Shown in pieces: positions 15,462 to 18,482 of a stretch of DNA of 64,000 nucleotides. Positions within the stretch are counted from its first letter, which is position 1. Every line of letters starts with the position of its first letter. The notes below the pieces were generated by a model, which saw only the letters and a list, made by a program, of their open reading frames with translations, ran no database searches and was not told the origin of the DNA. The position numbers and the translations under genes were made by a program. Source of the DNA: Octopus vulgaris (lineage: Eukaryota); contig OX597840.1 of assembly GCA_951406725.2 (NCBI GenBank), positions 22,692,001-22,756,000 on the forward strand, given 5' to 3'.

Positions 15462-17141
15462 TTACAGTGATGTGACTTCTTTTGTATGAATGCGTTTGTG
15501 CCTAGTCAGGTGACCATTTTGAGGAAATGATTTACCACAGATATCACAATGATATGGGTTCTCTCCTGTATGAATGCGTTTGTGCCTAGTCAGGTGATCA
15601 TTTTTAGAAAATGATTTACCACAGATATCACAATGATATGGCTTCTCTCCTGTATGAATACGATTGTGACCATTTAAAGAACTTTTATGAGAAAATGATT
15701 TACCACAGATATCACACTGATATGGTTTTTCCCCAGTATGAATACGTTTGTGGTTAGTCAGGTGACTATTTTGAGAAAATGATTTACCACAGATATCACA
15801 ATGATATGGCTTCTCTCCTGTATGAATACGATTGTGACCATTTAAAGATCTTTTATCAGAAAATGATTTACCACAGATATCACAATGATATGGCTTCTCT
15901 CCTGTATGAACACGATTGTGACCATCTAAAGAACTTTTATCAGAAAATAATTTACCACAGATATCACAATGATATGGCTTCTCTCCTGTATGAATGCGTT
16001 TGTGCCTAGTCAGGTGACTATTTTGAGAAAATGATTCACCACAAATATCACATTGATATGGCTTCTCTCCTGAATGAATGCGTTTGTGACCAGTTACATG
16101 ATTAATTCTAGAGAAGGATTTACCACAGATATCACACTGATATGTCTTCTCTCCTGAATGAATGCGTTTGTGACCAGTCAAGTGACCATTTGTAGAAAAT
16201 GATTCATCACAAATATCACATTGATATGGCTTCTCTCCTGTATGAATGCGTTTGTGACCAGTCAAGTGACCATTTTGAGAAAAAGATTCACCACAGATAT
16301 CACATTGATATGGCTTCTCTCCTGTATGAACACGTTTGTGAGCAGTTACATGATTAATTCTAGAGAAGGATTTACCACAGATATCACAATGATATGGCTT
16401 CTCTCCTGTATGAATACGATTGTGACTATTTAAAGAACTTTTACCAGAAAATGATTTACCACAGATATCACAATGATATGGCTTCTCTCCTGTATGAATG
16501 CGTTTGTGCCTAGTCAGGTGACTATTTTGAGAAAATGATTCACCACAAATATCACATTGATATGGCTTCTCTCCTGAATGAATGCGTTTGTGACCAGTTA
16601 CATGATTAATTCTAGAGTAGGATTTACCACAGATATCACACTGATATGGCTTCTCTCCTGAATGAATGCGTTTGTGGTGAGTCAAGGTATAATTATGAGA
16701 AAATGATTCACCACAAATATCAGAATGATATGGCTTCTCTCCTGTATGAACATGCTTGTGTGTAGTCAAGGTCCAAGCTACAGAGAAAGATTTACCACAG
16801 ATATCACAATGATATGGCTTCTCTCCTGAATGAATGTGTTTGTGCCTAGTCAGGTGACTATTTTGAGAAAATGATTTACTACAGATATCACAATGATATG
16901 GCTTCTCTCCTGTATGAATGCGTTTGTGAATAGTTAAATAACGATATCCAGAGAAGGATTTACCACAGATATCACAATGATATGATATTTTGCCCTTTTC
17001 ATTCTTCTCCTCATCAGAAACATCAATTTCTTCAGACTCTCTTTTACATTCAACTTCAGTCCGATATAATTCATTTTCCATAATTTTCTTTTTTCTTGTC
17101 ACAGTACACAAATGTTTTACTTCTTCTCGTATCATCATCAT
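15462..17141 (-). CDS. C2H2 zinc-finger protein ZNF-A1, 559 aa, 18 fingers (finger 4 has C-to-S); alternative start MENELY 20 codons downstream
   Basis: Uninterrupted ORF of CDICGKSF...H...H repeats with TGEKPY linkers after a short acidic N-terminus. Confidence 0.92.
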
Positions 17142-17273
17142 CGTTTAACGTCTGCTTTCCATGCTAGCATGGGTTGGACGGTTCAGCTGGGGTCTGGCAA
17201 GCCCGAAGGCTGCACCAGGCCAGTCAGATCTGGCAGTGTTTCTACAGCTGGATGCCCTTCCTAACGCCAACAA
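17137..17273 (-). mobile_element. 5'-truncated SINE (Meta/MESC-like domain, (GAT)n tail) at the start of the ZNF-A coding region; also at ~35554, ~50152-50300, ~62900-63050
   Basis: GGCGTTAGGAAGGGCATCCAGCTGTAGAAAC...CATGCTAGCATGGAAAGCAGACGTTAAACGATGATGATG; absent at the homologous B site (~22269). Confidence 0.88.
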
Positions 17274-18482
17274 ATATATTTCTACTAATATATCTCCATC
17301 AAAAGTGATCTTTGTTAATATCTGAAGATGCTGCAAACTGCCTTCTTAATTGCTTTAACTCATTAACATTCAGATTACTCTGTCAAATTTAATGCTTATT
17401 TATTCAAATTCTTCTGAATTAATCATTCATTATCTTATTGCTTTAAGATTTCAACGATGTGATTCTTTATGTTTATATGACATTGCAGGGTGAGTGTAAG
17501 AGGCCAGATGTAGGCAATTTCAACATAGAATATGCAGAATATTTGGGAATGGTATGCCCAGTTCAAATGTTAAAGGATTAATTCAAATACAAATATAATT
17601 TTCTGTGTATTCCAGACAATAAAGAAGAAGAAATTTTGCTACATAAATGTCAGAGTTCAGAAGATATATTTTGCAGTAATTCAGTATATATTTATAGAAA
17701 CAGGGTTATACGTGTTATGAGTAAGACGTTCGATACTAATGATGTAGTTTATATAAAAATCCTGTGAAGCTGAGGTCATCTGATAATCTGAAACGAAAGA
17801 GAAACAACAGTGTAAAACATAAAAGATAATTAGGAATTAGAGATTAAAATAGTGAAAGTTTTACTACATTTTTATATAGACATGTCCATAGAGGTGCAGG
17901 GATGGTTGTGTGGTAAAAAGTTGGCTCCCCAACACACAAATCTAATAAGCACACCCATTTTCTTCCTTCATTTCACTCCTTTCTTGAATTCCCAAGATTC
18001 CCTGTCACCATCCAATTCCATGAACGTGAATTTGAATGCTTGAGACATTGTGAATCTTTCTTTAGCTGATTACACAACCATGGATACGTTGCAGTTACTC
18101 TCTTCATAGAGCCTGGTGATCCTGACCCCTGAACTACAAGGTTCCCTCTGCCCAGCATCAATATAAGAAGCATTGTTGGTTCAGCTGAGTTCTTCTGCTG
18201 CTTCTTCACAAACTGCAATGCTGCAGTCCCAAAGTTCGTCACAGAGTACCACAGGCGAAAAAATGGTTAGAAATCACAACCGTTCATTTATATTTTATTT
18301 GGAAAATATAAAGTGGACCTCGGTGGAATTTGAACTCAGAAACTAATAATAATAATGGTAAATTAATTATGTGCAATACTTAATTAACAAATGCTCCACC
18401 ACCCATACAATGTGACGTATGTCAGTTATGTGTGGGTAGGAACCCAGCAAATGTATTTCATCATATTAAATTCCAATATAAT

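Follow-up and report, generated by a model that had tools for sequence, protein, structure and literature searches.

Can the simple-repeat tail of a retroposon provide the genes of a host family with start codons? The question is raised by a window of 64,000 nucleotides of Octopus vulgaris DNA, which is the whole stretch analyzed here. A sequence-only reading of this window had proposed that the (GAT)n tail of a SINE gives in-frame ATGs to all genes of a group called ZNF-A, and thereby adds an N-terminal extension ahead of a conserved start, MENELY. The C2H2-ZNF family, to which these genes belong, is tied to the neural expansion of octopuses.

The Gene Set

Seven multi-finger C2H2 genes lie in the window. 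Four of them (ZNF-A1 to ZNF-A4, hereafter A1 to A4) are read from the minus strand and three (ZNF-B1 to ZNF-B3, hereafter B1 to B3) from the plus strand, with A and B genes standing head to head (Table 1). Tandem zf-C2H2/zf-H2C2_2 repeats are present (PF13465, 17 stretches in A1 and 12 in B2), and the number of fingers differs between paralogs, with extremes of about 6 (B3) and about 18 (A1). In one finger of A1 and A2 (near 16640 and 35060, minus strand) the first Cys is replaced by Ser. The ORFs that open at MENELY are intact in A1, A2, and A3 (455–539 aa). The segments 8468–26955 and 26955–45400 form an 18.4-kb tandem duplication with 98.7% identity (111 substitutions and 22 indel events), so that A1 and A2, like B1 and B2, are near-copies; the proteins of A1 and A2 differ by one residue. 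This may reflect a recent duplication or an uncollapsed haplotype.

Two genes are damaged. A4 has three one-base indels (one deletion in the A-run of its leader and two insertions in the fingers), leaving a MENELY ORF of 186 aa, and B1 has one near 23128, leaving an ORF of 272 aa against 399 aa in B2. They may be pseudogenes or assembly errors. A general excess of one-base errors near A4 was looked for and rejected (relative to B3, one in the 2.6 kb of 3′ flank and none in 0.9 kb upstream), which makes real decay somewhat likelier than assembly error in this gene.

The surroundings are rearranged and rich in repeats. The spacer between the A and B genes is in reversed orientation in the A3/B3 pair relative to A1/B1 (17269–21770 vs. 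50483–54148), the DNA far upstream of A3 being B1-like, including three strong donors, and that upstream of B3 being A1-like (97.5%); this looks like a swap of promoters and first exons through recombination between inverted paralogs. A CpG-rich block of 820 nt (18144–18964) lies upstream of A1 and A2 and is absent in A4 and B3. It includes an imperfect, MITE-like palindrome at about 18475–18732 and a donor-like site at 18895. Elsewhere there are a fragment of a LINE reverse-transcriptase ORF (PF00078; 2584–4050, plus strand) and Pif1-helicase, Helitron-like fragments at 28260–28811 and 9948–10394 (minus strand; PF21530 tested on the 28260 copy). Toward its left end the window has (AAT)n/(AT)n arrays of great length, as well as an assembly gap of 100 N (1–2600, 4300–5230, 5789–5888).

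Table 1. Coordinates in the window of the genes, the element copies, and the predicted signals
Feature	Gene	Position	Strand	Remark
MENELY ATG	A1	17081	minus	
MENELY ATG	A2	35498	minus	
MENELY ATG	A3	50096	minus	
MENELY ATG	A4	62847	minus	
Start	B1	22318	plus	
Start	B2	40702	plus	
Start	B3	54209	plus	
CDS from ancestral MENELY start	A1	15462..17081	minus	A at -3, G at +4; 539 aa, about 18 C2H2 finger repeats
Host-derived codons (17)	A1	17082..17132	minus	stop-free already in B; hold RKKK
Three tail-derived ATG codons	A1	17133..17141	minus	-60/-57/-54 from MENELY, in frame; each with A at -3, A at +4
Element-borne uORF, MESRR and stop	A1	17145..17162	minus	strong ATG at -81 (A at -3, G at +4), ZNF frame
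Element-borne 10-codon uORF	A1	17138..17170	minus	weak-context ATG at -89; stop overlaps tail ATGs
Element copy	A1	17131..17273	minus	23 nt shorter than A3 at 5′ junction
Element copy	A2	35548..35690	minus	no difference from A1; ATGs 35558-35550 in the MENELY frame
Element copy	A3	50146..50301	minus	5′ junction longer; ATGs 50156-50148 in the MENELY frame
Element copy and host leader	A4	62848..63051	minus	tail ATGs 62906-62898 not in the MENELY frame
Empty insertion site and host leader	B1	22255..22317	plus	same in B2 near 40651, B3 near 54158
Longer independent copy of element family		20838..21180	minus	tail (GAT)4; duplicate copies at 39250 and 51240
Weaker alternative predicted acceptor	A1	17322..17340	minus	10/16 pyrimidines + CAG; 240 nt upstream of MENELY, phase 0 to ZNF frame
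Best predicted acceptor	A1	17788..17805	minus	14/16 pyrimidines + CAG; 706 nt upstream of MENELY

A Single Young Insertion

Alignment of the leaders reveals an insert 51 nt upstream of MENELY in all four ZNF-A genes and in none of the three ZNF-B genes. It measures about 155 nt, is truncated at the 5′ end, lies in sense orientation, and ends in a (GAT)n tail. A 23-nt motif of tail and junction matches the window four times, always on the minus strand (17120, 35537, 50135, and 62885), for 0.00 matches expected from 100 shuffles. B1 to B3 are empty, and A3 and A4 filled, at exactly the point where the sequence-only reading had placed the insert. A3 has a net gain of 152 nt over the B genes (the 155-nt element minus a 3-nt deletion in the flank). 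In A1 and A2 the gain is 129 nt, 23 nt below that of A3, which agrees with the earlier claim that these two genes are about 22 bp shorter at the 5′ junction and kept the tail. A possible reading of the junction of A1 and A2 is a deletion by microhomology, starting from an ancestor in which the 3 nt missing from A3 and A4 were still present, and the order of losses would then be less simple than a later loss in A1 and A2.

The four A copies show 0–3 differences among themselves in 141 positions of the element, against 12–14 relative to the other copies in the window, and their 3′ junction is identical. Hence there was one insertion followed by duplication, and the copies are not independent; separate insertions in A1/A2 and in A3/A4 are ruled out by the 0–3 differences in 141 nt. 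The empty site is the ancestral state, being found in the three B genes, and the protein XP_029654435 of Octopus sinensis reads straight across it. In conclusion, the insertion is real and young, and a single event was spread to A1–A4 by tandem duplication.

Identity of the Element

The longer copy listed in Table 1 is 88.7% identical to the A insert and has different flanks, and partial matches occur elsewhere in the window; related copies are thus dispersed among unrelated flanks. All six tracts of the (GAT)n type with at least three units in the window terminate this element. The A insert starts abruptly inside the sequence of the longer copy, with a 3-nt microhomology to the target. A simple-repeat 3′ tail and 5′ truncation, both present here, are typical of target-primed reverse transcription, and the element fits a 5′-truncated non-LTR retroposon. 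Any target-site duplication would be 0–4 nt long, according to which side the microhomology of the two junctions is counted with. In the longer copy, an internal unit is apparently repeated three or four times, as judged by eye, upstream of the part found in the A inserts (20990–21260, minus strand).

A tRNA-derived SINE would have a head with Pol III A/B boxes, and membership of a named superfamily (Meta, V, CORE, Deu, or Ceph; in octopus OK, OR1, and OR2) would show as similarity to the published consensus of the central domain. No tRNA-derived head was recognized by eye in the longer copy, the A inserts being truncated at the 5′ end, and in the window ARAGORN finds no tRNA and Rfam has no match. 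The element motif has no match in one supplement of PMC4824008, and a full-text literature match to it places no SINE paper in the best 20 of 41. The available portions of PMC4824008, PMC4758252, and PMC9115989 contain no sequence with which the element could be compared. Of the truncated SINE of about 150 bp that had been described, the size (155 nt) and the truncation are retained, and the class is a working label, neither a tRNA head nor a clear target-site duplication having been found. The element may instead be the 3′ UTR of a LINE.

Tail ATGs: Frame and Chance

A (GAT)n tail is a run of (ATG)n in one of its frames. A1, A2, and A3 share a reading frame of 26 residues running from the tail, so that three of the four A copies have an in-frame ATG that comes from the transposable element and an open path from it to the CDS. 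In A4 the A-run at 62855–62859 is one base short, and the tail ATGs open an ORF of 68 codons that overlaps MENELY. The claim of in-frame ATGs in all ZNF-A genes is thus correct for A1, A2, and A3, and is contradicted in A4 by a one-base deletion, as assembled. Because A4 is possibly a pseudogene or poorly assembled, its frameshift says little about the other three genes.

How surprising is the frame? In all three B genes the ZNF frame runs without a stop through at least 42 codons of host leader before MENEL, and any sense insertion in that region consequently has one chance in three of producing an in-frame ATG. Among simulated insertions at most 111 nt from the start, 111 of the 333 combinations of cut and tail phase give an open in-frame ATG, and over the whole 573-nt leader 137 of 1,719 outcomes are open and in frame. 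The in-frame start is therefore a one-in-three by-product of a single event, and the event is of a known, probably incidental kind. Among A1–A3, the 48 nt after the insertion and the linker show no substitution in 156 nt, which is compatible with constraint and, at this age, uninformative.

The Family Start and the Open Leader

Relatives were used to find out where the proteins of this family begin, their starts being those predicted by annotation. A HMMER library search with the N-terminal region gave three matches, two from O. sinensis (84%–85% identical over the matched stretch) and one from an unrelated Drosophila protein; a word search with residues 1–82 of B2 gave none among two candidates. 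The search with region 8–130 gave 267 matches, and N-termini were read for 12 octopus-named proteins among the 120 matches listed and for two earlier octopus matches. Among these 14, four have the linker found here, and in three of the four (two of O. sinensis and one of O. bimaculoides) MENEL or MEDEL is residue 1. The fourth is a partial, chimeric-looking model that joins finger sequence to an empty-site leader. A profile search among longer proteins returned only three matches, all already in the profile. The Atlas has no record for a window protein and places the O. sinensis homolog only in generic ZNF clusters, below 0.9, and none of the eight window proteins tried was matched to its own entry in the protein collection. 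The conservation of this Met in diverged paralogs and its context (A at -3, G at +4) favor MENEL as the ancestral start of the family.

The open leader admits another history, in which the 37–45 codons before MENEL were once translated, from an upstream exon or from a start since lost, and the insertion broke this older N-terminus; the in-frame TAA of the element would then truncate the old frame and the tail ATGs would partly rescue it. An open frame of at least 42 codons in three of three B genes is uncommon, arising in 1.0% of 4,000 shuffles and in 286 of 5,344 local windows of 126 nt, and the B genes have a phase-0 acceptor at -111. The junction deletion of A1 and A2 restores the ZNF frame through the whole element (17145–17350, minus strand), with a single TAA two codons before the three Met codons, and the partial model of O. 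sinensis includes 22 of the codons in question. However, the leader has no significant three-base periodicity (p = 0.18), and its changes between A and B are mostly nonsynonymous (3–4 to 1), although this is also true of the linker. The ATGs in the candidate upstream exon of B1, identified by eye, give no open phase-0 join. Apart from the chimeric-looking partial model, no named relative reaches into this region, an absence that weighs little because few octopus proteins are covered. We regard a broken N-terminus as improbable. An origin of the leader as a decayed duplicate of a finger or of a linker was rejected, since 161 and 225 of 500 shuffles, respectively, score equally well.

The Extension and Its Basic Patch

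If the tail ATGs are used, what do they add? The share of the element in the extension is three Met codons, at most with the AT of an Ile codon. The other 17 codons align to host DNA in the B genes, with 3–4 amino-acid differences. The description of a 20-aa extension derived from the retroposon thus applies to MMM, whereas the 17 codons that follow, including RKKK, are host leader. At the position of RKKK, the sequence is RERK or KERK in the B genes and SERK in the relative from O. sinensis, which indicates that the patch is a host change (G to A) that is also just a longer A-run.

The strongest version of the initial proposal makes the tail ATGs the present main start and the extension with RKKK a functional addition, for example an NLS. 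This would fit the frame of three copies out of four, three tandem ATGs with A at -3 that are the first in-frame ATGs on the message, the A-specific changes E>K and R>K that make four consecutive basic residues, and an extension without substitutions among A1–A3. Yet all of this follows one event with a prior of one in three, A4 is out of frame, a stronger upstream ATG (uATG) lies just before the tail, and the G-to-A changes merely extend an A-run. Classical monopartite NLS follow the pattern K(K/R)X(K/R) or are of the class 1 or class 2 importin-alpha type. Of three such patterns, the A1 extension matches none; it matches only a loose rule of four basic residues in a row. The finger arrays contain 15%–16% K+R in A and B alike, the B genes lacking RKKK, and C2H2 fingers can be at once required and enough for nuclear import, according to PMC3815127. 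The suggestion of an NLS thus finds no support, with none of three patterns matched, a one-in-three chance of frame, and a patch made by the host. We find no evidence of selection on the extension, and a functional addition of this kind seems distinctly unlikely; the production of some extended protein is plausible.

Presence in the mRNA

For the element to act on translation it must be in the mRNA. Splice sites and Kozak contexts were scored with general consensus values, not trained on octopus. On this scale two acceptors are credible, and the element is downstream of each. Between the tail and MENELY there is no acceptor above 9/16 pyrimidines with AAG, and the last 720 nt of A1 have no donor at 7/9 or better. 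Since the acceptors are upstream and no good one separates the tail from MENELY, the element is probably kept in the mRNA as exonic sequence. With the far acceptor, the leader would contain 9–10 host uATGs in six of the seven genes (A4 being taken from a slice clipped at the end of the window) and four in A3; so many host uATGs suggest that the real 5′ end may differ from the modeled one. The A3 leader is short of roughly 300 nt (50360–50509, minus strand), which lowers its host uATGs from nine to four and keeps both acceptors and the element. CpG-rich stretches lie 1.2–2.7 kb upstream and suggest a distal promoter. An unusual RNA fold of the leader with the element was considered and rejected (z = -0.86, against -1.34 for the B leader).

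These results also bear on a scenario in which the element has no effect on protein, either because it is spliced out or lies upstream of the transcription start, or because the A copies are not expressed or are in decay. In its favor, so long a leader rich in uATGs is unattractive, there is a weak AAG acceptor at -13, one-base indels occur in A4 (three) and B1 (one), and no donor at 8/9 is found within 3.6 kb upstream of A1. On the other side stand the location of both credible acceptors upstream of the element, the intact ORFs of A1–A3, and the distal promoter suggested by the CpG-rich stretches. We consider this scenario unlikely.

uORFs and a Model for Translation

A side remark of the sequence-only reading, that other ATGs of the element could be repressive uORFs, fits the sequence better than its main claim. 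The ATG with the strongest context opens a short uORF, MESRR and a TAA stop, whose end lies 3 nt short of the first tail ATG and 63 nt short of MENELY; a second element-borne uORF starts in weak context (Table 1). [quoted passage not shown] With such a need for distance, ribosomes that initiate at -81 should run past the tail ATGs and begin again at MENELY.

We therefore propose the following model. The sequences show that a 5′-truncated retroposon entered the leader of the ancestral ZNF-A coding exon a single time, in sense orientation and 51 nt before MENEL, and that tandem duplication carried it into A1–A4. Scanning ribosomes would reach the strong ATG of the element (-81) first and translate MESRR. 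Those that resume scanning would be unlikely to be ready at the ATGs 3–9 nt further on and would reinitiate at MENELY, 63 nt away, whereas those leaking past the uORF would initiate at MMM, giving an isoform 18–20 aa longer. The net effect would be a lower output of ZNF-A and a minor, functionally neutral extended isoform, a reading to which we give a probability of roughly 0.55. The extended form need not be minor, as three tandem tail ATGs with A at -3 could capture most of the leaking ribosomes.

One can go further and imagine the 3′ end of the element as a portable translation module (strong uATG, five codons, an in-frame stop, ATG-ATG-ATG) that resets or rescues the N-termini of ZNF proteins, the choice between the extended and MENEL isoforms being set by the supply of ternary complex, and that would have been kept across the ZNF expansion of octopuses more often than one time in three. 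This is highly speculative, and we think it very improbable.

Whatever its use, the locus has practical value. As it stands it is a reporter-ready test case, consisting of one insertion and a one-in-three geometric coincidence, and the filled (A) and empty (B) paralogs side by side constitute a natural control. If ribosomes use the tail, it would show cleanly, and at a very young age, how start codons are created by the simple-repeat tail of a retroposon. It also carries a warning, since gene predictors will lengthen such ORFs as far as the first ATG of the tail.

Comparison with Known Systems

Clusters of C2H2 genes have been described in octopus (PMC9068888, PMC9795677), and an enrichment of SINEs around octopus gene clusters, which may be a consequence and not a cause, is reported in PMC12988792. 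The genes analyzed here resemble the known clusters in being tandem, recently duplicated, multi-finger genes in repeat-rich DNA. They differ by the putative donation of start codons, which is not a topic in the portions available of these three papers; among titles and beginnings of abstracts of the open-licence literature, none was found to describe this locus or to name a (GAT)n tail as a source of start codons.

In primates, the Alu exons of cerebellar transcripts lie for the most part within 5′ UTRs, with an enrichment in ZNF genes, according to the review PMC9148063. The octopus case is similar in that a SINE-type sequence able to alter translation sits in the leader of C2H2-ZNF genes, a family in rapid expansion. 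Unlike Alu, which was mostly exonized from introns, it involves a direct insertion into the leader of a coding exon, and in a mollusc. The layout is also like the control by short uORFs of the GCN4 type (PMC5972666 and PMC10275272), where a short uORF is followed by a near and a far start and distance decides between them. In contrast with that type, the arrangement is here a fixed property of the 3′ end of the element, and it is known from the DNA sequence alone.

The closest parallel is human MTH1/NUDT1, where, according to the same review (PMC9148063), a 5′ LTR created three extra in-frame upstream start codons. In both cases a transposon in the 5′ region gives a host gene three in-frame upstream ATGs. 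The octopus donor, however, is the simple-repeat tail of a non-LTR element, its ATGs are in tandem, the extension consists of host leader, and the evidence comes purely from sequence. Start codons donated by transposable elements are already known in kind, and this insertion would be a further case, with a predicted effect.
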